From: Tricharina praecox
Taxonomy: Eukaryota
Reading direction: 5' to 3'
Length of the DNA: 64,000 bases
NCBI RefSeq assembly: GCF_024521635.1
Contig: NW_026250406.1
Coordinates: forward strand, 1,488,001-1,552,000
In this document: positions 631 through 54,243 of the stretch, piece by piece
How positions within the stretch are numbered: position 1 is the stretch's first letter
Layout of the letters: every line of letters begins with the position of its first letter
Notes under the pieces: generated by a model
What the model was told of the DNA's origin: nothing
What the model saw: only the letters and a program-made list of their open reading frames with translations
The model's database searches: none
Translations under genes and position numbers: made by a program

Positions 631-3600
631 ACGTGATATCAGTCAATAAAACTATATGGCAAACCCCACCTAACGTCGTGTTCACGGAACATCATTCATG
701 TTAGGGTGGAACGGCCTTCCACCGTTCCCTATGCACCCACCACATAAGTTTGGCAGTTGCGGTACCCTTGAGATAGTGTAGGATTATCTTGACTCCGGTC
801 AGCTGTGTAGCATAGGGTGTCTGGTTGTAGCGACCAAGGGCGGACACAGCAAATGCGTTATCCGGCCGGGTGCCGAGGGCTGCATATTACACATTGCCGA
901 TAATGCGACGGTATATGATTAAGTCTGCCTCGGAGTCGGCGTCAGAAATGCAGTCGAGCTTGGTTTTGTCGTGAAGAGGAGTCGGGGCCATATTAGCATC
1001 TTCCATACCGAAGCACCTTAGAATCATGGCGATGTATGCACTTTGACCGACGGTGATGGATCCATCCGTTTTCCGATCGATTTCAATGCCGAGGAACTGC
1101 TTCTCTAGGCCCACGTTTGACATCTTTTACTGCCGCATGAGGTGGTTCTTGACGTCCATAGCCCTATCGGAGGCCGAGTCCCCATGGAAAACAATGATAT
1201 CGTCGATGTACAGTAGTATCATTACTGCATCGTCCCGGATGTAGAGGTTGATGTCGGCCTTGGACTGTATGAAGCCGAGCGACAGAAGGTAGTCATTGAT
1301 CTTATTGTATCACTGTTTGGGTGCCTGCTTTAAACCATTTAGGGGCTTATTCAGGCGCAGGAAACCGTTTCTGGGTGTCTCGTGAAGCCACTCGATACCA
1401 TCCGGGAGTTGCATGTAGACTTCAGCATCGATTGCAGGGTTGAGAAATGCGGTAACAACGTCAAGGTGATAGATCTTCCAACCGTTCTAGTCAGCAAAGC
1501 TTAGCAGATATTTCAGGGTAATCAGCTTACCAACTGGAGCAAAGGTCTCATCATAGTTGTGTCCCTAGACTTGCTTGTAGCCCTTGATCACAAGTCTGGT
1601 CTTGTACGGGGGTAGAACCATCTGGGTTCCTCTTAGTTTTATAGACCCCTTTGTAGCCAATAGGCTTGCTCCCAGTCTGCTCCATAGGCGTGAAGACCAA
1701 GTCCGTAGATGGCCCCATCTACGGACTCGGTTGAGAACGGACCGCATAAGTCGGAGTGAACCAGTTCGAATGGAGTCGTTCTGCGTTGCATCGGAATACG
1801 GACGATTTTCTGCTCGTGCTTGGCAAGCACGCATACCTCACAGATATCTGTACCGTGTGTATAGCCGTCGATTAAAGTCTTCATTGCGGCTGCGTGTAAG
1901 TGGCTGAGCCGCTTGTGCCAGAGGCTGGATTCCATGGTTGACAGACGTGGAGTTTGTCTCGATGCGTGTACGGGAACTGACTCTGAAGGGGTGGTGCCGA
2001 GTAAAGCCTGAGGAGCGGAATGGATAATTCTGTCGAGTTGGTACAACCTCGCATTCTTCCGACCAGTCAATAGCGCGTTGCGATGGGAGTCCGATACGGT
2101 GCATTTGCCGTTGCCAAACTCGGTGGTTTAGCCGCGTACATCTAGGCTTCCGACCGGTAATCGCGAGTACCTGAAGGTTGGTGTTTGTAAGGCGTTCAGG
2201 CGGTGGTTTTGGACGCATATGAAGCCGTGATGCTCGACTCGAGTGCAGGTGTCGTCTCCCATGTTTGATCTCGATAGGGAACGCTAGCTTGCGGTAACTG
2301 ATAAAGTCTCGTTTGTCACCGTTATACATGTGGTGGGTTGCTCCAGAGTCGACAATGCATGTGGATGAGGCTACTTCAGAGGCCATATCAATGTTGCCTA
2401 GCTGGAGAGCACTCAGTTGATCGCGGAGCTCCTCGACCGGATTCAGCTGCGTCCGGTCAGTCGGAATCCCGGGGCCTTGCTGGATGTCAGCTAGTCAATC
2501 GATATTGTCATCATTCTCGTAGTTTGCCCGCACCAGAGCAGTCTCGGTGTTCGCCTGTAAAGCGGTGGCTGCCCTGTATCGTCTGAGAACATCTTCCCCC
2601 CGCTTCCGAACTTCGTAACACCGCTTAGTATGACCAGCTTCCCCACAGTAGAAGCATACAATGCTGCTGCTACGAGCATGCTTTCGACTATGGACCTGGG
2701 GTTGCTGATTCTGTCTGGCTGGTAGGTCCCTTCGGTGTTCGTCAGTATTATGGTTGTCCATACTACAGTTTGTGCACCGGTCCGTCTTTGGCTCGTCGTT
2801 GTGCTGCTTTCCTTGCCCATCTCGTCCACCTCTGACACGCAAGCCACCTTGACGACCTCTTCCGGATTGTCCGACTCGCCCCCCTCGGACATAAAGGGCC
2901 GTTCCCGATGTAGAGGCGAGGTTGCGATCGCCAATATTCGTTGAGCTGTCTTTGACTGTACGCCCAAACTCCGACAGTTCGTCTATAACGTGTTGCAAGG
3001 TGAGCTCTGCCGGTGGGAGTTTGCGGAGGAGATGGACGATCACGTTGAATGACTTGGATATGGAGGTGAGAATGTGGCTAATGAGGGTGTTGTCGGAGAT
3101 TTGTTCGTCACTTCCATCGCGTGGTTGTCAATATTGGATGAGGCGCTCGTAGTAGTCGGATATCTTCTCGCTGTCGGTGGCCCGGACTGTATACAGCTCT
3201 CCTGCATGCCTCGCGCGGCTCGCCTTTGAGCTGGAGCTATCGAACTCCAAATTTAGGACAGTCCACATCGTCGCTGTGTCATCAAGCCGTGTGATGTGCT
3301 GCATAATTTTCTCGCCCACCGAAAAGCGGATTAACTTCTCGCCTTCGGCCCGCCACATATTGTAGTCTGCAAGGGGACGGCCTGCGTTGGGTTGTTGCTC
3401 TTCTGCCGTGACGATCGCAAACGCGCCCAAAGACTTGAGGGTCACGTTAACATTGGCTTTCCAGTCAATGTAGTTCAGCTTATTCAGCTTCTCAAAATTG
3501 CCATGGTTCGACTTGTAGAACTCCTTCTTGTTGTCGATAGTTGCCATTTTTTCGTGTTTAGGCCAGTGGGTACGAGTGGATAGTATCAGGGTATTTTTGT

Positions 3601-3672
3601 TTGTTTCTTCGGGGATCAGGATGGAGTCAGGGAGGATGTGTGAGGAACCTGGTTTCTAGCATGGCTTATCCC

Positions 3673-33898: not shown

Positions 33899-34968
33899 TC
33901 AGAAGAATGTCCTGCCCTTGCGACGAGCGTACTGCTGGGAACCCCGCGCATTGCACGAAGCCACAGTAGGAGTGGTGGTGGCAGTCCGAGCGACCGTAGA
34001 AACCGCAGTCCTAAACGTTACCAAAGTAGACGCCGGCACCGCCGGGACCTGGAAATCATCCGCCTTCTCTACCTCCTCCGCCTGCGTAGCGTTCCTCCCA
34101 TCCTCCCAAATATCCGTCTGCGCGCCATCGGCGAATCCATACAACGGCTCAGCATACGTTGGCGCATAATGGCCGGGCTCGAACATATTCATCCCCTCCC
34201 TATTCATCCAATACATCGGCTGTTTTGCGCCAGTCATACATCCCTCCGTCGCATTATTCTCACACTTCCACGGTGCCGCCGGCCTCCCCAGCTTCCTTGT
34301 ATTCGTCGCGCCGGTAACATTGCACACGAAGGGCGTCATGTACATCTGGTCCGTCCCGCCTGCGCTGGCGTGAATCCAGAACCAGGCGCACATGCAGCGG
34401 TTGTTGGGGCACGCGGGGAGGTCGGGGACGGCGAAGGTTTCTAGCTGGCGCGCCGGAGAGTCGTACTTTACCGAGAAGACGACGAAGTCCGCCGGCATGA
34501 CAGTGTGGGAAGTGGATTTGTACGCGATTGCGAGTGCGGACCCCGCGACATCAAGGCGGGAAGGCGCGTGCATGTTGCCCCAGCCGTTGGTGTTGGTCCA
34601 TGGGTTCGGTGCTGCGGGGGTGGGTTAGCAGGGGAGAGGGTGCGGGAGGAAGGGAGGGAGGTACCTTCGCGAGGGTTCTCGTCGTACCAGCCGTGTCCGA
34701 GCGGTGTGTGGCCCTTGTTCGAGGAGATCATCACGTCGACAGTGGAGTTGGGCTTCAGCTCGAAGACTTCGCCGTCTGCGGGCGGTAGGTCGAGCGCGCC
34801 GTGCCACCACCACTGGTTGAAGGTGTAGTCCTGAAGCGGCTGCGAGGCGTTGTCGCTGTTGATGTTGGTGGGGTCCAGCCCGAACATGGATGTGCTCCAC
34901 ATCGAGAGGTGCCCGTTCACGCCGGCGAGTAACGGGAGCGATGTGATGATGGTGCGAAGGATGGTCAT
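33899..34968 (-). CDS. AA14-family lytic polysaccharide monooxygenase (338 aa; exons 34968-34665, 34611-33899)
   Basis: Signal peptide ending VNG then N-terminal His (HLSMWSTSMFG); PLQDYTFNQWWWHG.LD.PP; second His in GNMH; ALAIAY; DFVVFSV; C.CAWFWIH; QMYM (axial Tyr). One 53-nt GT-AG intron restores the frame. Confidence 0.9.
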
Positions 34969-35994
34969 TTCGAAGGAGCGAGTGAGTGAATGAATGAGAG
35001 AATGAAGGAAAAATGAATGAGTGTAAAGTAACCGAAGTATCGCGCGATAAGAGAGTGTGGTCCGGTCCAGCAGAGCGTAGAGAGCGAATGTCGAGCAATA
35101 TCCCCCCCTCATATCGACGGTCAGAATATGCTTAAATACCTCGCCCAATAAATCGACCAATCTCTCCATTCTCCGAGCTCCGGACGATTGATTTCTTCTT
35201 CGTAGATTAGTTGCTCCTCTCCGCTCCGCTGGTGCATCAGCTCACTAGTAACAGCGATCGTCTCACAGTCCTGGTAATCTCATGATGTCGGCACCGAGAT
35301 ATGCATGTCGCCTACCTTCATAATAACTTGTTTCACCCGACGGTAACTAGCGGAAAGACTGGGCGCGCTCACTTGCCGGGTGCGCATCTTAAGTTGACAA
35401 GGGACAGGAATTTGCGGATCATGCTGTCATCCTCCAATTCTACACGTCTGTAACTTGGAGAACCCGCCGAGAACCCGATCCGAAGTGACACAGCACGAGT
35501 GCAGTGATTGCTACGAGAGCATGGGTGGGGACGGGGATCACTGCGCTGAGACCACCGAGACCACCGAGACCACCGAGACCACCGAGACCATCGAGGCCGC
35601 CGAAGCTACTCCAGCGTTCGATCTCAGGTGAGCACGTGGGCGGCTATGAAACGTCTCGCGGGTGATCTCCGCCCCTCGCCAGAAGCGCCACATGTCAATT
35701 CATAGACGAAGGCTGCGGGTGTGCGGTCAGTGTAGTCAGTTATACCGACCATGGCAATACAAGGGCTCTGCATGGTTCATGTCTACGGTCTCGGTAGCGG
35801 GCTCGGTTCAGCAATGTATCTATTTCCCGTCGCATCACCGCCGCATGCAGCCTTACGGCGAAAGCGGGTCGGGCTGATGGCGCGCGGGGATGAGTGCTCC
35901 ACCATGACTGTCGCGACTCTGCCTATGATATTGTTGTCATGAACGATAGGATAAACAGCGGGGTGTTAATAGCACATTAATACGATCAAGCTAT

Positions 35995-36695
35995 ACAGAC
36001 AGAGTTCGTCATAAACTCTCCGAAACCTCGCATGCGAAGCGCTGGAATCGTCCTGTTTTGTCATAACCACCACTTATTCTGTCACGCAACGACGGGAAGG
36101 GGACATCACTGAGAGTACCACATTCTCAACCAGCCGTCGCGGTCAACCCGAGGCGAAGTGGGAGGCGAACGCTCACATTACAACTCACTCGACTGCCAAT
36201 TCACCACCCGGCACTGTTCGATACCGAATGACGCTTCACTTGATCCAAAACATCACGCAGACTAGGTAGGAGGAAGGAAATTTATCAATTTAACGAAGTA
36301 ATAAGAAAATGCAAGTAATTTGAATACACAGTAAAAAGAAACGATCCACAGTAAAAAGAAACGATACACAGAAAGAAAAAAACCAAAACAATGTTAATGA
36401 GCTGATGCGGTGTAGGTGGCGTTGTGCGGGGTGTTGGCCGCTTCATGGTCGAGATCCATGGCGTCGTTCGGATGAAAGTCGCGAGCGTCGTTTCCGACGG
36501 TCGAACTTTCTCTTGATCGGCATTCTGGGGATGAGGTGCTAAGTTGCGGATGTTTTGGTCGTTGACTTGGGTAGCTGTAGGAATGTTGCTCGCGGGGCGT
36601 CGGGGCGCCAGGGCACGGGCAACCTGAAGGAGTCGAGATCCGGAAGTGAATCCGGATCCGAAGTGCTCCACGGGTAGTACATCCCACTCGGTATA
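35995..36695 (-). repeat. Dispersed repeat C, copy 1 (direct duplicate of ~39450-40195)
   Basis: Co-linear similarity; both minus-strand ORFs share TTPWISTMKRPTPRTTPPTP and LLQVARALAP. Confidence 0.85.
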
Positions 36696-37589
36696 CCGGT
36701 CGAAGCCGGTCTCCCGGGAGCTGACCAGAGAGAGTAAGCACTCGTTCCTGGGTTGGTTCTGGAAGCGCAGCGAAGACCTCTCGTAACCTTTCCATGTCAG
36801 CACGGTCGAGACGCCAGCACCGTGTCGGTGTACGAGGGGAGATCAACGGACCTGGCCTGCATGGCGTGGACGTTGCATTCTCCCGGCGATGTGTGGGGGG
36901 CCACAACATGTGGTCCGCGCAGCGCGGATCTTTGATCTCGCTGTGCGATTATTTTTGCTGCCTGGGCCGGTGGAAGATATTGTGCTTGAGGTGCTGGGAA
37001 AGCCGGCAAAGAAATGGGATGATTGTAGCTATGATGGAGGATATGTCGCAGGTACGAATAACGATACACCGCCAGTACGAAAAAGACTGAATCATAGCTA
37101 ATGAAGTTGATGCGTCGCAGCTACGAAGGAAGATACGTCGTACGTACAAATAAGATGAATCTAAGCTACGAAGGAGGATGTTATAACAATTGAGAAAATG
37201 TCGGCTGCGCTCTGTGAGGAGGATTTGGTGCAATAGAAGGAGTCTATATTAATGAGTTGCTTCTACTTACTGTTCTAAGAATGTTTCTGCAAAATCAGCT
37301 TTGTGTAACCCGACGGACATCAGGGGAATAAAAAGATCCGTTGCGGGCGTGTAGGCGGTCCTGACTCTAGTAACGCTGGAAACGTCCTGGGGCTATTGCA
37401 CAGAGTGAATGCCTAGTCATTTCCAGATATGAACGAACAATGCCCAGTCATTTCCAGATACGAACGACCAATGCCCTGGCTATTTCGTGTGTGATTGGAG
37501 ACACCTATGTGCCTGCGTTACCTCTCGATCCTGCGTGTCCTCTCGTTGGAGTGGTCAACCATCCAGAAACTCCTACTCTTCATGGTGTC

Positions 37590-37845: not shown

Positions 37846-38000
37846 GGTGTAGATACTACTATTGTTCAGGTAGGCCACATGCTAGCAATAAATAACACTA
37901 AAATCAAACTGATTTCTGCATGTGATGTTTCGCCCAAAAGCGTTCCAACGAACGTTCACCCACCCCAGCTGACGTTGTTCTCAGGTGATATGGTGGCGTG

Positions 38001-39157
38001 TACGGCGGTCGAAAGTGGACAAATAGCCAAACATGTGCATTGTGCATTTGACATTTTGCATTTGACATTTTGCAACGCACCGTTTTGCGACACAGCGCTG
38101 GTCGCCCCACCCCACACCACAACAGAGCGGCCACCAAGACAAAAAGAGAGAGAAAAAGAGATAGCAAAAGAGAGAGGAGAAGAGAAAGAAAAAGAGAAAG
38201 CTTAGGGGAGAGAAAAATAGAGCGGAAAAGAGAGCGGAAAAAAAGAGCGAAAATTGCGAGAGAACGGTAGGTGTTGGCGAGGAGCGGAGTTTGGTGGGGT
38301 GAAGATGGGTTAGGGTTTAGGTGTCACAGAAACTAGGTAGGCCGAATGGATAAAACGGTGCCATCTCCACCATTAACCGTACGTTTTTGTTTGCGAAGCA
38401 TCACCGTCACCACCACCATCACCACCCACACCGCTAGTACTGCTAACACCGCTAGATCTCTTCCTCCGGAAGAATAGACCGGACATGCTGATTGACATAC
38501 GGTGGTGCCCCGCTCACAAGGATGTCCCTGGCAACGAAAAGGCAGACGAATGGGCGAAGCTGGCAGCAGAGGAGCCAGCAGCCGATACTCAGGAGGCGGA
38601 CGCTTTCTGGGAGCGGACGAGCTCTGGGAGCGGGTAGCGGGGAGGCAGGGCGAGCGTTGTCTCCTGTTAGGGATCGGGCTGGCCCCTCCGAGTAGGAGCC
38701 TGCAACCTGTATTATCAGATATCACTCGGAGTCTCAAATTTGATGATATCAACTACTTCTGGGCTCCTTCCAGTGGCGGAGGAAGCTGTGGAGGTGATGG
38801 TGGTGATGACATTGCTTTACCGTATGTCGCATAGTCTCTGCGACATCTAAACCCTAACCCATCTCCACCCCACCAAACTCCGCTCTTCACTGACACCCAC
38901 CGTTCTCCCGCAATTTTCGCTCTCTTTCTCAGCTCTCGTTTCAGCTCTCTTTTCAGCTCTCTTTTTCTCTGTCTTTTGCTCTCTATTTTCCTCCCTCTTT
39001 TTGTCTCGGTGGTCGCTCTGTTGTGGTGTGGGGTGGGGCGACCAGCGCTATGTTGCAAAACGGTGCGTTGCAAGACGGCGCGTAGCAAAATGTCAAATGT
39101 AAAATGTCAAATGCACAACGCACATGTTTGGCTATTTGTCCACTTGCGACCGCCGTA
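38001..39157. mobile_element. Non-autonomous foldback element with ~335-bp terminal inverted repeats and captured internal sequence
   Basis: 38001-38335 is the reverse complement of ~38830-39157; ends TACGGCGGTCG..CGACCGCCGTA; GCGTG flanks both sides; the interior encodes an RNase H fragment. Confidence 0.85.
38491..38580 (+). pseudogene. Fragment of non-LTR (LINE-type) RNase H domain
   Basis: Translates as IDIRWCPAHKDVPGNEKADEWAKLAAEEP, the W.PAH...GNE.AD..AK RNase H signature. Confidence 0.8.
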
Positions 39158-39449
39158 GCGTGGGTCCGTTCACGCTCTCCCAACTTACTTGACCCGCCGA
39201 ACATCGCAAGCTGTATACACGCAGCCGGCTACGTTCATGGTGATTTTTTTTTGTTTAATCATTGATTGCATGCGACCTAACTAGATCGGTGAATTTGTTT
39301 TCCCTGATAGTCGGGGTGCGGGCTAGCGGCGACGGGCGACCCACCATGACTGCTGGTACTTTACCTCCGATACTATGGTCAAAAACGAGCGGCTAAACGG
39401 CGGGTGAGAATCTCGCGTTCAGCTCATTATTCACATGGAGTTATCGTCA

Positions 39450-40195
39450 ACGACATCATAAATTCTTCGCAACCTCCCATTCGAAGCGCAGGAATGGTGC
39501 TGTTCTTTGTGTAACCACCGCTTATCGTGCGCCGCGATGACGGGGACGGCACATCATTGAGAGTAGCATATTCTCAACTAGTCGTCGCCGTTAACCCGAG
39601 CCGAAGCGGGAAGCAAACGCTCACTTTACGACTTACTCTACTACCAATCCACCACCTATTACTGTTCGACACACACACCGACTGACGCTTCACTTGATCT
39701 TACGTATCAGGCAGACTAGGTACCTGGAAAGAAACTACATAAATCAATGTAAGGAAATAATGAGAAAATACAAGTAGTATTGATACACAGTAAAACGAAA
39801 CGATACACAGTGAAAACAAACGATACACAGAAAAAAGAAACCAAAGCAATGTGCCTAATGATCCGACGCGGTGTAGGCGGCGTTGTGCGGGGTGTTGGCC
39901 GCTTCATAGTCGAGATCCATGGCGTCGTTCGGGTGAGAGTCGCCAGCCTCGTTTCCGCCGGTAGGAACGTCGTCGTTGAACTTTCTCTTGATCGGCATTC
40001 TGGGTATAGGTGCAGGTAATGAATGTTTTTGTCGTTGACTTGGGTACCTAGTTGGAGGGATGTTGCCCGCGGGGGCGCCGGGGCGCCGGGCGCCAGGGCG
40101 CGGGCGACCTGAAGGAGTCGGGCGACCTGAAGGAGTCGAACTCCGGAAGTTATTCCGGATCCGAAGCTCCACGGGTCGCCCATCCCACTCGGTTA
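39450..40195 (-). repeat. Dispersed repeat C, copy 2
   Basis: Direct duplicate of 35995-36695. Confidence 0.85.
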
Positions 40196-40719
40196 TCCGA
40201 GTCGTAGCTCGGCATCGAACGATGTAATGAAAAAGACAAAAGGAGTTTTGGCGAATTCATCGCGTCCATAACATCAACTGGGGCCGCGATGCCCACCGGG
40301 GCGCTGGGGCCGGGCGGCAGAGCCGCCGAGGTGGTACAGGACGAAGTATGCATCGGTGATCTCCGCACCACGCTTCTTGCGGCCCTTGCTAGCGCGATAG
40401 CCCCGGACACACAGTCTGTTTGCTCCCTGTTGCCTGCTGTTCTAGGTTCGGTCAGTGATGAGCACAGGTGAGAGAAAGGATGTCGACTTACATGCCGGAT
40501 GGGTGGTAAATCCCCTGTGGGAGTGTTGTGCACGGCCGCGGGGGCACCGAGGCGCTAGGGCACAGGGGGCAGAGCCGCCGAGGTGGTGGGGGCCAGGGCT
40601 CCGGGCAAACAGTCGATTAGCAGCGCGTCCGCTGCTGTCCTAGATTCGTTCAGCGATGAGTACGGGATACAGGAAGTGATGTTGACTTACATGCCGGATG
40701 GATGCGATATCCCCTGTGG

Positions 40720-44256: not shown

Positions 44257-46983
44257 TTAGGTGTACTGTATATTCACAGCCCCATAGCATTGTCCGTCAA
44301 ATATCAACTCGAACTTCCAGACCTACGCGAGCGAGTGACTGCGTCAGCTACACGTGATCCATGCGTACCGCTGGAAATATTGAGCTCACCTCGTTCACCA
44401 GCGTCATGCGATGTTTGAACTCCACACGATAGAGCGTATCGCCATTTGTGCAGCTACTCTTCACGAATTTGCGGCGGGGGACGGATCCGAGGTCCGAGAT
44501 CAATTCACCCACGCGATAGACGGCTTATGTGACAGATGGTTAAGGTAGATGTTCGTTCAAACGCGAGTAGTGGGGAAGCATTGTCACATACCTGGCCGTT
44601 TCTGCCATTTGTAGACAGGGGCATCGTCGAGATCGCACGCGTAGAGGTGCGACTCGAATTTGAAATCTGGCTCCTCGCCGGGTGGGGCACGGACGTGGCG
44701 GCGAAAGGTTCGGTGGGATTGGCCGATTGCCGTGCCCTAGATGGCTGCTGTTATTCCTCGTCTCTTCACGCCGGTAGTGGTTGCTTTGAGATACCGCGGA
44801 GATAATACCTTCACAATGTACCAGTGCATCTTATCAGAAACCTTCAAGACGTCCTCATACGGACATCTGTAAATATGACCCAGTGCTTCTGGTAAGCTGC
44901 AGTTTCGGCTGTTATAGCTGCTTCCGTAGTGCCTTGTGGCACGTCTTGCCATCACGATGGAGCCGTCAAACCCTCGGAGGAGCGCGCCGCGCGCTATGGC
45001 GGTTTGTCTGTGCTCGATGTTATTTCCGGGATCCATCAGGTTTAAGGTGAAAGCTAGCTGTCATACGCGTTCACGGGTTGGAGCACACTGATCCTCTTGC
45101 CGCGGTAAGTATGACCTTCAAGACGTTTCAAGAGGTACCCGGAGGAGCCGAAACCACCGACGAGAAGGATTCCCTAAGATCTTCGATTAGGATATCGACA
45201 TCATTCTCTTGTCCGCGAGGTTGGGAATACACACCTTGACCCTTTCCTCCTTTGCGCGTACGTCCTTGACTTGCTGAGACACGAGCGCGACAATTTGATC
45301 TATCACGGGATCAAAGATACTCAGAACGTCCTCACTTGGGAAAAATGATTGTCAGCGTCCATTCGGACCATTCCCATGAGACGTTTCCGCCGATGACGTA
45401 CTATTGCATATTGTGCCATCCTTCACCGATTTTCAGTTCTTCGTTATCGGCCACGCCGGGAACGTTTATATCGTAATTTGAGAACGGTGCCTCGTTTCCG
45501 AACTTCAAGACTGCCGTGAGCCCAGTGATATTGGTTGTGGAGGGAAGAAAAAACAGACTTTGAATTTGACCGTTTCCTCCCAAGATCGCATCATCGCCGC
45601 TCTTGACCTCGGCTAGAGCCATACGGATCCACGATTCAGCGGGCGCGCAATTAAAGGATCGGAAAAATTGGGTACACACCATCATAGCATCGAAGGTTTC
45701 ATCCCCCAGAATCCGCCGCATGTAGTCTTCAAAGTTCTTGTCAAGAAAAGTGCTTCCGCAAAGGGCACCTAGTAGAAGAATGCATGGGTAAGTATGCTGA
45801 TAAAGGAGTACCTCGAACGGGAAGCAACACGAACCTGTGCCAGCCACGACCTCGTCCACTTGTAAGGGGTTATTCCCGGTGATACTGTAGGAGATCAAGT
45901 CGCTTTTGTTCGTTAATCTTGTACCGACTAAATCGGATTACCGTATGAACGATGTACATACACCGTCCCCCCTCCAGCATCACATAGGACAAAGGCATCC
46001 CCAAGCTGATCGAAAGTCAGTGAGCTGCTCAGTTCGCCATACCAGACGGTAGACAAAGTGCATAGTCATGAGCCGCATGCAGAGGATTCAGTACGTACCG
46101 AGAGATTATTCGATTGGATAACATTTAGCGCGTACGTAGCGCCGCATTCCGGCTCACTGATGAGCTCAAAATCCATGCCCCGTTCGCCAAACCCCGCCTT
46201 CCTTGCAGCTTGGATCATCAGATCCTTCGCGGAATCGCTCCATATTGCGGGCACTGTCAGAACCCATTCCACCTTGGATTGCAAATCCTGCTACATCCAG
46301 TAGGTTCTCTTGATACTGTCGAGGGTAGTCTCCCTAACTTTGGACAGAAAGTCACTCACCACCGTCACGATTCTGATATCCAGCCCCTTTAGGATCTCGC
46401 GTGCAGAATCGACTGAAGTGGCGCAAGACGCCGTCGCAATTTGGGATGGTGGCCGAGTTGGCTCCGCAGAGCTGGATACACTCAACCTTTTCAATGCCTC
46501 ATCCACCGTTGTCGATCTTTTCGCTCCGCTACCGCGGGTATCCCACCTCGATCCTTCGTGCTTCCCCCGGTGGGTAGACCGCCGGGCTTTGGAACCAGAC
46601 CCAGCACCCCCGTCGTGGCACTCCTGCTGCAGCAGAAGCTTGAACCATTTCAGCGGGCCTGATCCTGGCGTCGGCCTGCTCCTGGAAACCTCATAGCCCC
46701 ATCTGATGCCCTCCGGTGTGTATTCGATTTCGGTTGGCACTTGGTTCGCCGAATTCGCGCCGACGCTGGCGCCCGGCCATGTCTGGACGAATTTTATGTC
46801 CTGTCGGCTTTCGGAATGCGCAAACACAACCGATGTATACCTGCTACCGTTAGAGACGGGGAATGAAGGCGCAGGATCAGTGAAGAGACGCAACGTAGTT
46901 CCGAAGTCGAGGCCGACAACCAATTTGCTGCCTTTCGGTTCTTCCGCGACGCGATCGCCAGCTCCGGCGCTTCCGTTAACCAT
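44257..46983 (-). CDS. HSPA12-like fungal Hsp70 (actin-like ATPase), multi-exon, one in-frame TAG at 46291-46293
   Basis: VVGLDFGTT, TWPG, VPTEIEY, WFKLLL, VLTVPAIWSD, ISEPE, CDAGGGTVDL, LCGS, LVGGFGSS, AIARGA, RHYG; canonical introns traced to a TAA at 44257. May be a pseudogene. Confidence 0.88.
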
Positions 46984-47403
46984 TTCGCGTTTTCGAACCG
47001 TGCGGATATCTGACGATGGATCGATCTGGTCTGGGCCAACCGGAGGAATGCAGCTGAAAGAGTAGTGACGTGAAGGACTGACTTGGTGCTGTTGTGAGCT
47101 GTCAAGACGTCGGTCGCGTGCGGGGTACTTGGCTATTTGTTCGGTTCTCTTGATTGGCTGCCTAGGTGGGTTGTACAATTCTGTGTTTCAGCCGCAGACC
47201 GTAATCGCGTGTCTAGAGTATTATTGCGGATGGGCTGCGGGGTAGCGGCTTGTGGTAGCAAAGTATACAGGCCACTTCCCCTTCGCATCCTGAACCTAAG
47301 AGAGCAAGTTCATCTCACCCTCCGCTTCCACTAAAGTACCAGTACACCGAAAGCTAAACATCTCCAACGCAGATATAGACCTTCACCGGTTCAGCGACGA
47401 TGA

Positions 47404-48792
47404 ATGCTATCGATGGAGCCGAGACGCACGCCAGCGAAAACAGCGTCACTACCTGACCCGCACTTACCCCCTCAACCGGGCCAGTCGATTGCGAGCGCGG
47501 GAAGACGATCAACATCGACGAATGAAGTTCAAATCAAGTTACAAACAGCAATCAGGGCCCCTCTCTATGGACACGAATGTCTGACTGGGATTACCGCCCT
47601 CGACATCCCCTGGTGCGTCCCTCCCTCGGCTTCAGCAAGCACCCCCTCGGGGTTTTTTGCGGAGACCCCCGACCACCCACAGCGCAGTATGTACGATGGG
47701 GAGGCAGCGTAATATTGGTACGAGAAGTTTCAAAAAGAGAGGAAATTGAACAAGCGGCTCAAAGTGACGAATTCGGAATTGCGCGATACCGCGAAAGCAC
47801 AGTCCGATGGGACTGAGAAGGAAGCAGAGAAGTATCTACGTCAGCGGGAAATGCTGGGAAAACTCCGGACAGCACACGTCAGGGCTGTCAACAGCGTCGG
47901 CTCGGGATTGGAGCCTATTGCGGATGAGAGTTTTGTGCGGCGATTTCGAACGTTGCACCATGAGGTTTGGCGGGCCTGTATGCTCCGAATATGCAGTGGA
48001 GACGTTTCTGACATTATCTGTAGATCCACAGCTGGTGTCGCAATGGCTTCAAGCAAAGCAGCTGTGCCGCGCCTCTAACCGAGGTTGAGCCACGGATTTT
48101 GGCACAGCACCTCTTTTGGGGGAGAGTTCACGATATCCGCCTCTTGAGGCTTTCTGAACTTATCGACTGCGTAGCATGGGCATTTATGGGGAAGTTTATA
48201 TTCTCCGTCTGGATGCCAGGATGTGACGTGGATATCCTGAAATGCATCAAGGATCTCGAAGCACTTCTCGAGCAGGGTGGTACGCTACGCCCATCTCACT
48301 TCTATTTCGATATTCCTGCTAAGCGGTTCAGATTCCACCTTAGGTAACGAGAAAACAGCCATCTGGCGCTCCCAAACGGCCTCCCTTCTCTTTCAAAATC
48401 CGCGACTCAAGCAAACTCTGGAAGACGTTTCTTCACTGTCGTTAGAACTCATCGCCGTCCTCTGCTCCATTCCACAGCATGCAACCTTGCAAGAGCAGCT
48501 TCTCCCAGCCATTGGAGGCTCTCTCCGCTCAGTCCGCTTCCTCGCCGCGGAGATGAAATGTCAGCGTGGGAGCTTCCGGCTGGATGACAGTGTAGGAGTG
48601 GGCGATTTGTTCGATGAGGAGACGATGCAGGATGTACGGTCCACCGAGATGGAGGAGGGAACGCAGGCGATTGTCGCTGCAGTGCTTTCCAAGGGGTGGA
48701 TTCGGATTCCGCCGAAGGAGGTCGACTTGGTGGAACAGAATATTTGTAAAACGCGAGTTGTGATCAGTATTCTTTCTTTCGTACATTCGTAA
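47404..48792 (+). CDS. Coiled-coil protein with GrpE-like C-terminal motif, head-to-head with the Hsp70-like gene; in-frame TAA at 47710-47712
   Basis: Two GT-AG introns (~47966-48023, ~48280-48331) join the ORFs; C-terminus GDLFDEETMQDV..IVAAVLSKGW..ICKTRVVI. May be a pseudogene or start at a later ATG. Confidence 0.7.
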
Positions 48793-49111: not shown

Positions 49112-51632
49112 CTACCCCGAATGTCCGCTCAGGTATTTTCGGACACAGGTGAACCGTGTCTCGACAGCACCATAGCGCTTTCCCTTACACATTAATTCGT
49201 ACGTCCAAACCTACACGAGTAACTCCATTAGATACGCGTAGCCGAGTGAAAGAATATCATCAATCTCACCTCATTACTCAATGTCATTCGAAGTTTGAAG
49301 TGTACGCGGTAATACTTCTCTCTGTCAATGTTTGTTAACATCTTGAACTCACTGCGCGGGATTCTGCTAAGGTCTGCTTCCATCGTGCACACTTGATAGA
49401 CGGCTACAGCAGTTGAGCAAGTGTTCTTGCAAGATTTTTTAGGATCAAAGAAACACTACCGCTCGGGTTCTGCCATATGAAGGCAGGGGGATCGTCATCA
49501 CAGGCGTGTAGCTTCAAACTGGTGACGAGATTCGGCTTCGCGTTGGCGAGGATTTCTAAATAGCAACCATACTCAGACCACCCTGATGGCTCAATTAGAG
49601 CGCCCTGAATGGCGGCTCTTGGTAGACTATTTCCGACGTGCCTGCGTTTCTAGGAGTATAGGAGTAGGGAGGCGGATACCTTCCGGACATACCACTCCAT
49701 CGATTCATGGACCAGCACACTCTTGGACCCCTCGCTCAGGTAGGTATGAGGTCGCATCTCCATTGCGCCGGTAAACGGTGTACCAAAGCTGCCGCCGTAG
49801 TACCGGGGCGCACGGCGGGACATCACTATCGAGCCATCGAAGCCTCGGAGTAGTGCTCCTCGGGCTATTGCGCTTCGAGTGTTTATTGTTACATCTGGAT
49901 GGAGCCGTTGAAGTACGCGAAAGGTGGTAGCGGTCTGAGGTCTTACGCATTAACTGGTTGCAAGACCTCGATCATTTGGCTGCCAAATTTGTCTTCGAGG
50001 CGCTTCATCAGATACTCAGAGGAACCGAAGCCTCCAACGAGGAGGATTGTCTATGTACGAATCCTTAGTTAGAGAATCCTGGGGTGCTATTGAAGGCGCA
50101 ACAAACCTTCACGCTATCGCCTTTCTGCCAAACCTTTGACACCTGCCGCGATACCAGGGCAATAACCCGATCTACTACGTGATCGAAAATCCCCTTGACA
50201 TCCTCACTGCGAGATCTCAGCTCATACTGAGGTCGGGTTCAGGGGGTGAGCTTACTATTTCATACTATGATATCCATCTTCAAAGTTCATTTCCTCGCTA
50301 TCAGCTACCCCCGGAATGATGACTTCGAATTTCCCAAACGATATCTCGTTGCCGAACTGCGAATATTTTGATCGTCAATGGTGAGCCGCGTACTGTCATC
50401 CGAGTGTGGCAATATGGAACCGACCTTGAATTTGACCGTTTCCTCCCAGGAACGCATCATGCCTTCTTTCGACCGGGGCTGCAGGATTTTCAGCAATCGA
50501 TAATATGTAACTAGTGGGGTACCTTGTAATTTAGAGACCTTCATAGCATCAATCATTTTGTCCCCCAGAATGCGCCGGATGTACTCTTCGAATCGCTGGT
50601 CGTGAAAGACGCTTCCGCAAAGAGAACCTGGGAGGAAAGTTAGCGAGACGCCACCCGGGAATGAAATGACCCCAGCCGGCACCAGCCACCACCTCCTCGA
50701 CTCGCAGGGGATCGGTGCCAGTGATCTTGTAAGAGATCAAGTCGCTTGCGAGCGTTAGCTATTGACAAACGATGGTGATATCAAGTTATGTGCACTGTCC
50801 CACCTCCGGCATCGCAGAGGACGAAAATATCACCGAGCTGTGTACAATATCAGCAGTTATGCGGCCCACCAGAGATGCAGTGTGATCCCCGCCGAAACGT
50901 TTGCGGAGTTTGAACTCACCGAGAGATTGTTTGGCTGAATTGCCTTGAGCGAATACGTTGCACCACACTCGGGCTCACTAATAAGTTCAAAGTCCAACCC
51001 TCTTACGCCAAGCCCGGCCTATCTGGCGGCCTGAATCATCTGCTCCTTTGCCGAGTCCTTCCATATCGCTGGCACGGTCAAAATCTACTCCACTTTCGAC
51101 TCCTCCTCGTTCTCCATCCAGTAGGTTCTCTTGATACACGCCAACGTTGTCTCCCTGATGTGGACAAGGAAGTCTGCGACGGCCTTCACAGGCGTAATCC
51201 CGAGCTCCTGTAGGATCTCGCTCGACCGCTGTGCTGGCTTCGCCGCCAATTGAGAGCCGGCATCCGGCCTTTGCAGCAGGAGCTTGGACCACTTCAGCGG
51301 ACGAGGCGCCGGAGTCGTTGCGGCATCAGAAACTTGATAACCCCATGATCTCTTCTTGGGACTCTGTGCGTAGTCAAGTTTGGTCGGGACTTGATCCGCC
51401 GAATTGTTACCGATGCTTCCGCCGGGCCAGGTGTTTACGAGCTTTACCTCCGATTGGCTTTCGGAGTGCGCGAAGGCTACCGATGTGTATCTAAAGTGGG
51501 GATCATCGTCAGCATGTGAGTTTGAGAGATATCGACGCACGTTGTCCCAAAGTCCAGGCCTACGACAAACTTGGGAGTCTTTCGCTCCGGCTCTACCGGA
51601 GCGATCGAATCGTTGGAGGACGCGTTACTCAT
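49112..51632 (-). pseudogene. Second HSPA12-like Hsp70 paralog with two in-frame TAG codons and some non-canonical donors
   Basis: Same motifs and similar intron positions as 44257-46983; KVE*ILTVPAIW (TAG 51085-51087) and QAAR*AG (TAG ~51019-51021); two donors read GC. Confidence 0.82.
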
Positions 51633-53727
51633 TAGTCAATGATGTCAGAGTTCCGCGTTAGCTTGCAATGAATTATTGAAGCAAAGTCTTCAAGGAGTAC
51701 TGGTGAACAAAAGGTGACAGGCAGCTCTAAGCCCTGGTAGAGAACGAAAAGTAAGGAGTTGATCTTGGGTGTGCGGGGTTGTGTAGACGGCTCTTTTGCT
51801 AACATGAGCAAAGGTCTCCTTTCGCGCAGTTCACCCTGCATTCCTACCGTACTTACGCGAGAGGGATAACTACGTGCGCGGTTGGCGAAAGATGCGGGGT
51901 TGATGAGTACTTCGGTCTTTTTGATTGGCCAACTGTCTCTGCATGTTTCGTATCTGCATGCACTTCGTTCTGTGTACCCAGGCTGCCGAATGACGCGCGT
52001 GCAAGGCGACCTAGTTCGCGATGCGGGGCTCTACTCTGAAATGTGAGTGTCCACCTGGAGATAATTTCCCTGGATCAAAGACAATAATAACCCGTATCAA
52101 GCTTCCAAAGAGTCAATAATGAAGGGAAATTCATCTCCGGTAATGTAGCCATTCAGCTGAACTACGATGACAAAAAGGATCGGACAAAGCCCGTTTTACA
52201 CCAAAAATGCCTCATTTTCACGAAACCTAAACCTATCCTCCACCCGCTCGACAAAAATCATCTCTTTCACAGAACCGTTAGAACCACAAGCTTCTTCGTC
52301 ACTAACAGCTTTGACGACTTTCATCATGGATTGGGGCTGTACGATGTTGTATTTTGCAGGAGTTGAAAAGTGACATTACGTTTTGTAAGGGGCTCCCATA
52401 CAAAAAGCTACTTGGCAACCATTACCTTTTCCCTATTTGGTATTGCTCAACACCAACAATTCAAAACTTCGTGCCCAGTTCTCATATCGTTGTCTGTGTA
52501 GTTATAGGGGTCTCTCAATCGTCTCTGATTCTTTTCGATGCGTTGGGGTTGTTGTATCAGTGGTTGAAAATGGCCACTTTGGGTGAAAACTGGGCTTTGT
52601 CCAACTATTTTTGTCCTAGTACTATTAATCCTCGTCACCAAACACTGTTGATGTGATACCTATGATGCACACAGGCGGAAGAGACAATAATGTTACTAGC
52701 GGCAAAGGTTCAGGTAATGAAGAGGCAGAGGGCCAATTCAGATCAGTGCAGGCAACAGCTCAGCCCAATCAAAGCCAGTCCGCAGCCCGGCGCGTGTAGT
52801 AGAGAGTGATTTGCAACGATCCGTTCACTGCTAGTCTCGTCGAGGGCGATCCGGCCAGCTCATTGTGGCGCTGCCTATATCCAAAATAAATCACACACAT
52901 AGGAGGACTTCAGTCCTTCGTCTCACCTGCGTGAGCCTGTTTCCTATCGATTGTTGTAGGGTTACCCTACCAACTCTAGGATCCAGCCCGCCCAACGCCA
53001 ACTGATAACCCGGGCTGCGCTGCCAGCCCATCGGCTCCAACCCGAGCTATCAGATCAGCCCACCAGCCCCAGCCCAGCCCATAGGATTTTCGGGCGGTTA
53101 CCTGCACTGTCCAGAATGGCGGTCGGGAATGATCACGTAAGCAAACGCCTTCGAAGCCGACCGTGAATGGCGGCCAGGGGGCGTCCCGACCCCCGAGCGA
53201 CTCAGTAGGATGGTCGAGCAATTGTACTCTACTACCAGCGAGAAAGATGATGCCTGCAGCACAGAAAAAGGAGGCAAATCATGTTCGCGAGAAGCAGATT
53301 CTGGTCTGTTTTTTTGTTTTATCATCGTAAAATTCAACCTTATCAGATCATGGCTGTACACACGCCCGTTGCACCCCACTATCTCCGACCGCTGGCCACG
53401 AGCTCGATGTGGGTTCCATATTGCTCTCCACCCTGCTCATCCGCGTATAGAGAGACAGACAGACAGAAAAAAGGGACAGGACATTCCGAAGAAGCTGCGA
53501 GCATATGGATGCCACTGTACAGCAGCACACATCCGAGTGATCGTTCATGCAGCTCGCTTACATCCTCGCAATTTCGGCGCGTCCACAAGCCAACCACAAG
53601 CCAATCGCGATTCCTATCCTTGCATCAAAACGGGAAGCCTCGGGTAGATACTGATTTATCAGGATCCCCGAGTCGCACTTTGGCGTCGCCAACCACGCAT
53701 CACTACTCGCTCGCCATAAACGCCACC

Positions 53728-54243
53728 ATGAGCCTCGACATCTCCGCCCTCCACAAAGACTTCACCTCTGCACCATGGGTGATGTCGATTCTCACCGCGG
53801 CTACCACTGAGATCGTCAGTTTTGCCTTCGTCGGCAGACCCAGATCCAGGGATGGCCATGAAGACTCCCTTACCGCGGTAACCTTCAACACAGACGACAC
53901 GTTCCGCGCCTACCTTCCCGTCGCGACACCGAGCGAGACATGCACGTTTATATCCGTGGGGGATGGACTGAATGGGCACGAAGGCATTCTACACGGAGGC
54001 GCGGTGTCAGCGATCCTTGACATCGGATTAGGCGCGCCGGTAAACACGATCGCTTTCACAGCGTTTCTAAATGTTACATTCAAGAAGCCGCTGCCAACGC
54101 CGAGGGTCGTGGTGTGTCGCGCGAGGATTACGAAGAGCGAAGTGCGGAAGAAGTGGGTCGCTGGTACGCTCGAGGATGGCGAAGGGACCGTATATGCGAC
54201 GGGGGAGTGCCTGTATGTTGAAGCGAAGCCGGCGAAGCTGTAA
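53728..54243 (+). CDS. Hotdog-fold (PaaI-type) thioesterase with PTS1 peroxisomal signal
   Basis: 171 aa from caccATG; GLNGHEGILHGGAVSAILD, TAFLNVTFKKPL; ends in AKL. Confidence 0.9.
   Translation: MSLDISALHKDFTSAPWVMSILTAATTEIVSFAFVGRPRSRDGHEDSLTAVTFNTDDTFRAYLPVATPSETCTFISVGDGLNGHEGILHGGAVSAILDIGLGAPVNTIAFTAFLNVTFKKPLPTPRVVVCRARITKSEVRKKWVAGTLEDGEGTVYATGECLYVEAKPAKL

Follow-up and report, generated by a model that had tools for sequence, protein, structure and literature searches.

A Pezizales gene pair of a putative HSPA12-type Hsp70 and a partner with a probable GrpE-like beta domain, both interrupted in Tricharina praecox

The stretch of DNA analysed here, referred to as the window, comprises 64,000 nucleotides from Tricharina praecox, a member of the Pezizales, and belongs to a contig of 1.72 Mb (NW_026250406.1, positions 1,488,001 to 1,552,000 of the forward strand). 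At positions 44257-48792 of the window, two genes stand head to head, one encoding an Hsp70-like protein and the other a protein that we call the partner. We show here that such genes are paired in several related fungi, that the partner ends in a domain with a moderately supported resemblance to GrpE, and that in the window both genes carry a premature stop codon.

The Hsp70-like gene (copy 1; 44257-46983, minus strand; BZA05DRAFT_204555) runs from an ATG at 46983 to a stop codon at 44259-44257 and, once its 13 exons are joined, forms a frame of 645 codons with a single in-frame TAG at codon 213 (46293-46291). The partner gene (47404-48792, plus strand; BZA05DRAFT_204567) runs from an ATG at 47404 to a stop codon at 48790-48792, with introns at 47965-48023 and 48280-48331, and forms a frame of ~424 codons with an in-frame TAA at codon 103 (47710-47712). 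The 420 bp between the two start codons (46984-47403) hold both 5' untranslated regions (UTRs), including an intron in that of the partner (47308-47372), and are a candidate for a shared promoter. The partner protein terminates in ...GDLFDEETMQDVRSTEMEEGTQAIVAAVLSKGWIRIPPKEVDLVEQNICKTRVVISILSFVHS, followed directly by the stop and preceded by predicted helices, and its C-terminal beta domain (48571-48774, six predicted strands) contains the motifs G-D-L-F-D-x3-M-x-D-V ... V-x-x-V-L-S-K-G-W ... I-C-K-T-R-V-V-I. Both proteins are deposited as hypothetical, the Hsp70-like one as KAI5856586 (615 aa) and the partner as KAI5856587 (276 aa), the latter starting at an internal ATG at 47851. A second Hsp70-like copy (49234-51581, minus strand), traced by tblastn with P0007 and the copy-1 exons, lies 442 bp past the partner stop codon and is convergent with the partner. 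Its protein is 32-77% identical to that of copy 1, and it is more decayed, with at least two in-frame stops (asterisks in ...SKVE*ILTVPAIW and ...QAAR*AGLG) inside the equivalent of one conserved copy-1 exon. No second partner copy was detectable in the 64-kb window. An earlier sequence-only reading of this DNA had proposed divergent genes with starts ~420 bp apart, a partner tail IVAAVLSKGW..ICKTRVVI after helical segments, one nonsense codon in each gene and a duplication of the Hsp70-like gene, and all of these features are present as proposed.

To follow the two genes into transcripts, four runs were compared: X1 is soil-metagenome DNA, X4 is DNA, and X2 and X3, public runs of two studies, were taken as transcripts. 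No run is on record as RNA, and X2 and X3 were treated as such because of the GT..AG joints in their contigs, which are absent from the two DNA runs. In X2 and X3, spliced contigs lie on both genes, with 12 CT..AC joints for the Hsp70-like gene and two GT..AG joints for the partner, to which X3 adds the 5' UTR intron (joint 47307->47373). Transcript contigs on the minus strand extend to 47108/47117, and those on the plus strand begin at or before 47302. Given splice joints in X2 and X3 and none in X1 and X4, both genes are therefore transcribed and spliced. The X2 and X3 contigs span the exon at 46099-46838 and the stretch from 47302/47373 to 47962 with both stops unchanged, X3 having zero differences from the window and X2 having differences that fall outside the stop codons; X1 also retains the partner TAA, its four differences within 46660-48346 all lying elsewhere. 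Since the stops are found in spliced contigs of two studies, they are not assembly errors. The TAA stands in place of the conserved Q of a motif A-Q-[YF]-W-Y, this Q being present in the intact relative P0002 and in 5 of 5 relatives from metagenomes, and the TAG stands in place of an E that is encoded by GAG in the window paralogue and is likewise E in the Wilcoxina homologues P0004 and P0006. Repeat-induced point mutation (RIP) was considered as the origin of the stops and rejected: TpA/ApT (0.53-0.70) and (CpA+TpG)/(ApC+GpT) (1.11-1.28) over the three genes are like those of the rest of the window, and the change from GAG to TAG is a transversion.

The annotation of the Hsp70-like gene disguises this situation. 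The annotated model, P0003 (615 aa), splices out the TAG by an intron (46291-46400) that has no transcript support, because the X2 and X3 transcripts run through the exon at 46099-46838 without a break; it also skips the residues DLISYS (45903-45961) through an alternative splice site, for which the transcript contigs give no support either. The deposited 615-aa protein thus conceals the interruption of the gene.

One could suppose that the genes of the window still work in shortened form, the partner being made from the ATG at 47851 (276 aa, and so deprived of its long helix) and the Hsp70-like gene yielding a 212-residue N-terminal fragment or being read through. In favour of this, each gene has spliced mRNA in two runs, and apart from the single stop both spliced frames are open over 645 and ~424 codons. 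The listed strain differences, with synonymous to non-synonymous ratios of 7:5 for the Hsp70-like gene and 7:9 for the partner, can be set beside these observations, but the list is partial, with 28 further differences not included, and the ratios neither show nor exclude residual constraint. Against it, the 212-residue fragment would stop before the DAGGGT and GGFGSS nucleotide-binding motifs, and the one annotated model with an uninterrupted Hsp70-like frame owes it to the intron that the transcripts lack. Moreover, a 2-nt insertion (CG) behind 47594 is found in X1 and X2, relative to the window and X3, and this indel polymorphism shows that the reading frame ahead of the TAA varies among members of the species. 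We therefore regard working, shortened genes as quite unlikely. Most likely, the window pair has been recently inactivated or at best yields truncated products, because each otherwise open frame contains one stop, the stops are shared between runs, a frameshift polymorphism precedes the TAA, and the adjoining paralogue is decayed further.

The identity of the Hsp70-like gene is readable from its spliced translation, which contains the motifs DFGTT, DAGGGTVD and LVGGFGSS and points to an Hsp70/actin-fold nucleotide-binding domain with phosphate-binding motifs. With the Pfam HSP70 family, whose cut-off is 20.6 bits, the annotated model P0003 reaches 18.8 bits and the homologues P0004 and P0006 reach 39.1 and 43.9 bits; the match is confined to nucleotide-binding-domain positions, ~130-370 of 599. 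The NCBIfam families DnaK and HscA also match at nucleotide-binding-domain positions, and the Pfam and NCBIfam matches alike end at about profile position 370 of ~600. A profile of 17 relatives found 3406 proteins at E<=1e-30 among 8000 candidates scored, distributed across Ascomycota, and names given in their sources to some of the relatives listed include 'Heat shock 70 kDa protein 12A-like', '12B' and 'heat shock 70 kda protein 12a'. By the extent of the match and the names of relatives, the protein appears to be of HSPA12 type, with neither the canonical substrate-binding domain nor the lid; the assignment to HSPA12 draws on the names of the relatives listed (120 of 3406) together with this domain extent. 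In Pezizales the family is multi-copy, the matches listed including at least 11 proteins of Wilcoxina mikolae, at least 10 of Rhizina undulata and at least 6 of Trichophaea hybrida. In the passage available from a 2026 review (PMC13580251), HSPA12 is said to have no known function, and neither that passage nor the literature listings that we searched describe a cofactor for it. The listings, searched for HSPA12 with GrpE, MIEAP, nucleotide exchange factor/fungi and co-chaperone, and for 'GrpE-like' with 'atypical Hsp70', did not contain a dedicated GrpE-like HSPA12 partner. As a side observation in bacteria, a scan of genome contigs with the Hsp70-like profile gave four loci, at two of which a small open reading frame (ORF) overlaps the stop codon of the Hsp70-like gene (L001:7355-8038, Streptomyces, 227 aa; L004:7401-7802, Hydrogenedentota, 133 aa). 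Neither of these two ORFs has a significant Pfam family, GrpE included, and hhalign matched neither to the profile of the fungal partner.

The partner belongs to a narrower family. In a word-indexed search, the sole hits were the window protein itself and a relative, P0002 (437 aa, 57% identity). A full HMMER scan of 1.84 billion representatives raised the family to 180 proteins at E<=1e-3, of which 91 remain at <=1e-10 and 21 at <=1e-30; a good many of the 180 are fragments. All 15 members with a species name come from Pezizales (Tricharina, Sphaerosporella, Trichophaea, Wilcoxina, Ascodesmis, Rhizina and Geopyxis). An AlphaFold2 model of the intact P0002 (105-sequence alignment; predicted local distance difference test score, pLDDT, 81.3) begins with a disordered N-terminus, which is followed by a long helix (106-173), a helical domain (182-354) and six strands (359-425), and the model of window exon 3 (152 aa, 76 sequences) reaches a pLDDT of 92. 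The architecture predicted for the partner is thus a variable disordered N-terminus, a ~70-residue helix, a helical domain of ~170 residues and a C-terminal six-stranded beta domain. In the window, most of the helix that is predicted with 68 residues in P0002 precedes the internal start that remains behind the TAA. In the ESM Atlas, the nearest clusters to the translation of window 48334-48789 are unnamed Ascomycota proteins (score 0.95), and the nearest named clusters are GIL1_IRKI_C (0.84) and MIEAP (0.80, commonest in molluscs), both below the level from which the tool counts a match as more than a lead. HSPA12 genes are described as massively expanded in bivalves in the part of the review available (PMC13580251).

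The pairing of partner and Hsp70-like genes is well supported beyond the window. Nine of the 15 named partner members have an accession consecutive with that of an Hsp70-like gene on the same contig, and these come from six species: T. praecox, Sphaerosporella brunnea, Trichophaea hybrida (two loci), Wilcoxina mikolae (two loci), Ascodesmis nigricans and Rhizina undulata. GenBank protein accessions run in gene order within a genome submission, and this use of them was checked against the window pair, which is adjacent, and against the locus tags of Rhizina, which are sequential. Six of the nine are simple pairs (KAI5856586/87, KAA8895127/28, KAF8243916/17, KAF8542986/87, KAF8242418/19 and TGZ81552/53), and in KAF8541133/34/35 the partner has an Hsp70-like gene on both sides. 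The remaining two, KAL7275879/80 and KAL7275881/82, form a double module in Rhizina undulata (RUND412_001156-001159; P0058, P0183, P0191 and P0056) in the mirrored order partner, Hsp70-like, Hsp70-like, partner, and its two partners are only 40% identical. For three further members, among them that of Geopyxis (JGI ids 638388 and 638392), an Hsp70-like gene is present on the same contig, and for the last three no such gene on the same contig was found among the matches listed (best 120 of 3406). A scan of metagenomes yielded 10 partner loci, and in all five with at least 3 kb of downstream flank an Hsp70-like gene follows 2.0-2.1 kb downstream on the same strand; none was seen in one locus with a 1.4-kb flank or in four short contigs (2.2-3.5 kb). 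The five linked loci and the one with the 1.4-kb flank represent two distinct loci, each found in three samples.

Within the nine pairs, partner identities are 20-49% and Hsp70-like identities 36-96%, and the two distance matrices correlate (Mantel r 0.65, a value reached by 13 of 5000 permutations), which fits co-duplication, shared phylogeny also contributing. We do not claim fast partner evolution at orthologous loci from the comparison of Trichophaea with Wilcoxina (37% vs 96%), since the library, being clustered at 50%, may hide the true orthologue. A partner that diverges much faster than its ATPase could also be the specificity determinant of a fast-turnover defence or non-self-recognition module, such as the sequence-only reading suggested, in which the conserved ATPase would act as effector or motor. 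Such a role would be in keeping with the multi-copy state of the Hsp70-like family in Wilcoxina mikolae, Rhizina undulata and Trichophaea hybrida and with the pseudogenes that stand side by side in the window. However, Pfam recognised neither NLR, HET and toxin domains nor any other immune domain in the two proteins, and PADLOC gave nothing for the fungal proteins. Furthermore, the divergence itself may be overstated, because the representative library hides relatives above 50% identity, and positional orthologues may not have been the ones compared. We find a defence role highly doubtful, and it would in any case be compatible with a GrpE-like mechanism.

GrpE is the nucleotide-exchange factor of DnaK, and the partner was compared with it first by sequence. 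As reference we used a profile of 32 bacterial GrpE sequences that carry PF01025. Aligned by hhalign, the partner C-terminal profile (76 sequences) matches GrpE with a probability of 80.6%, a P of 1.3e-5 and a score of 38.9 over 54 columns, which lie on the GrpE beta domain. All 402 controls score at most 19.4, namely the two reversed profiles (13.6 and 14.2) and 200 column shuffles on each side (maxima 19.4 and 19.2), and the partner scores 13.3 against the unrelated Hsp70-like profile. A differently cut partner alignment gives the same columns with a P of 3.5e-5. When the GrpE hidden Markov model (HMM) was run against 277 collected proteins, the top 40 were all of the partner family (best 11.1 bits), a ranking that counts for little because the scores are low and several of the matches are coiled-coil-only fragments.

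The comparison of structures agrees with the sequences. In a Foldseek search of the Protein Data Bank (PDB) with the model of the exon-3 domain, 8 of the top 9 matches are GrpE or GrpEL1, from seven entries (E 0.011-0.23, probability up to 0.87, template-modelling score 0.23-0.30). VIA-align over 48,161 chains placed GrpEL1 (9bls_B) at rank 1 (Z 5.8, root-mean-square deviation (rmsd) 7.3, 99 residues), with GrpE chains 1dkg_B and 3a6m_B at ranks 15 and 26 and most other listed matches covering only the helices. A second look with the same aligner found GrpE entries at ranks 3-7, 14 and 27, and the partner beta domain superposes on that of Mycobacterium tuberculosis GrpE (8gb3_E) with 2.8 A over 55 residues. 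For the full-length P0002 model, GrpE 4ani_A (Z 6.0, rmsd 6.2) aligns with all its 156 residues to model positions 130-425 and is the only match among those listed that spans from the long helix to the beta domain. Sequence and structure thus agree and lend moderate support to the view that the partner C-terminal domain and the beta domain of GrpE are remote homologues; for a GrpE-type domain with the conserved motifs, the support is likewise moderate and not decisive. The predicted structure is not unrelated to GrpE, and linkage is conserved in other genomes.

Taking these lines of evidence together, we think it rather probable that Pezizales have conserved a module of two genes, of which this locus is one copy, consisting of an HSPA12-type Hsp70 ATPase and a dedicated partner with a GrpE-like beta domain. 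A number of results weigh against this interpretation. As to the likeness to GrpE, only the ~60-residue beta domain matches, and by hhalign the helical region (P0002 95-355) has no match in GrpE, with a score of 17 over one column. All scores of the modelled structures are weak: Foldseek found no match in the PDB at E<=1e-3 for the exon-3 model, and the VIA-align Z values of 4.8-6.0 are within the range of chance arrangements and tied with helix-only matches. Pfam has no family for the partner (window pieces, P0001 and P0002), nor has NCBIfam. With the 21 C-terminal pieces, Pfam GrpE was the sole hit of one (P0140; E 0.013, 15.6 bits) and stayed below the curated cut-off of 25.8 bits, so that on this measure the partner does not classify as GrpE; the family is also not among the 25 most matched by 105 partner members, and in sequence profile searches of the PDB with the partner GrpE is not among the 4 and 28 weak matches listed. 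As to the pairing, adjacency in the annotated genomes was inferred from accession order and not from DNA, and the linked pairs are not independent, several stemming from duplication or being mutual orthologues. Orientation is variable, being divergent in the window and, in the metagenome loci, tandem with a spacer of 2 kb. As to the window itself, both genes are interrupted, and nothing here need be functional.

Two claims of the sequence-only reading have to be narrowed accordingly. The head-to-head arrangement is real in the window, but the pair is tandem and on the same strand in the two metagenome loci, and co-regulation from one promoter is therefore not general. The proposal that the partner is a GrpE-fold cofactor is supported, as regards the fold, for the beta domain, which two structure aligners and hhalign with its controls place closest to GrpE; it fails at the Pfam GrpE family and does not extend to the helical domain of ~170 residues, which has no counterpart in GrpE.

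The same weaknesses leave room for another explanation, in which the partner would be a lineage-specific coiled-coil adaptor, scaffold, client or co-duplicated neighbour with no role in exchange, its likeness to GrpE being too remote or convergent. This would accommodate structural scores that are tied with unrelated helical matches, a partner that reaches no family threshold, a large middle helical domain to which nothing in GrpE corresponds, and divergence to 20-49% where the Hsp70-like proteins of the same nine pairs keep 36-96%. On the other hand, the hhalign match exceeds every one of the 402 controls and was reproduced with a second alignment, two aligners independently put GrpE first among the matches that cover the beta domain, and the neighbour is precisely an Hsp70-family ATPase, in six species and two metagenome loci. 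On balance, we consider an adaptor or mere neighbour unlikely.

If the partner is instead the dedicated GrpE-like half of the module, a mechanism can be outlined. The partner would dimerise via its long helix, would dock through its beta domain on the adjacent Hsp70-like protein, at the nucleotide-binding domain of the latter, and would control ADP/ATP exchange; its fast-diverging helical parts may recruit clients. We infer this exchange role from the homology of the beta domain and the identity of the neighbour. A broader proposal can be offered only tentatively, and with more doubt than conviction: HSPA12-type Hsp70s may use a GrpE-derived exchange factor or adaptor of their own, the Pezizales module may duplicate, diverge and die as a unit, with the partner helices setting specificity, and T. 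praecox may have lost both halves together. As a probable natural knock-out of the pair, the window fits the idea that the two genes are useful only together. A conserved neighbour with a GrpE-like domain would offer a concrete and cheap biochemical handle on a widespread branch of the Hsp70 family.

Several other features of the window were noted in passing. At 1841-3655 (minus strand), three successive stop-separated open frames in one phase, the last matching a copia-type gag (Pfam PF14223, E 7e-7), look like a decayed long terminal repeat (LTR) retrotransposon. Upstream of the module, the ORF translations at 36285-36948 and 39716-40256, and those at 37904-38323 and 38835-39158, share pairwise long near-identical stretches (e.g. 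...TTPWISTMKRPTPRTTPPTP...), which points to a local dispersed or tandem repeat. A fragment of an AA14 lytic polysaccharide monooxygenase lies at 34471-35241 (minus strand; PF22810, E 2e-19), and a domain of the 4HBT thioesterase superfamily at 53251-54240 (plus strand; PF03061, E 5e-5). For most of the remaining long ORFs of the window, no Pfam family was matched. This scarcity of recognisable domains and the decayed gag are the features noted with regard to the possible accessory region of the sequence-only reading.

Set beside known systems, the two genes resemble characterised proteins to different degrees. The Hsp70-like gene is comparable to HSPA12A and HSPA12B in its DFGTT, DAGGGT and GGFGSS motifs, in a Pfam match that covers the nucleotide-binding domain only, and in having relatives named 12A-like or 12B; it is unlike them in its conserved neighbour and, in the window, in its premature stop. 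For the partner the comparison is with GrpE, Mge1 and GRPEL1 (PF01025; 1DKG, 4ANI, 3A6M, 8GB3 and 9BLS). In contrast to these, the partner, known here from its sequence and predicted models, falls below the Pfam threshold, has a long disordered N-terminus, and has ~170 additional helical residues, with no alignment, where GrpE has the short helices of a four-helix bundle; its neighbour, moreover, is an Hsp70 of apparent HSPA12 type and not of DnaK type. Nevertheless, the partner is predicted to share with GrpE the succession of a long N-terminal helix, further helices and a C-terminal six-stranded beta domain, which aligns to the GrpE columns G-x-P-F-D-P-x-x-H-E-A-V ... G-Y ... R-P-A-x-V-x-V and for which GrpE is the best structural match that covers it, and the partner gene adjoins that of an Hsp70-family ATPase.

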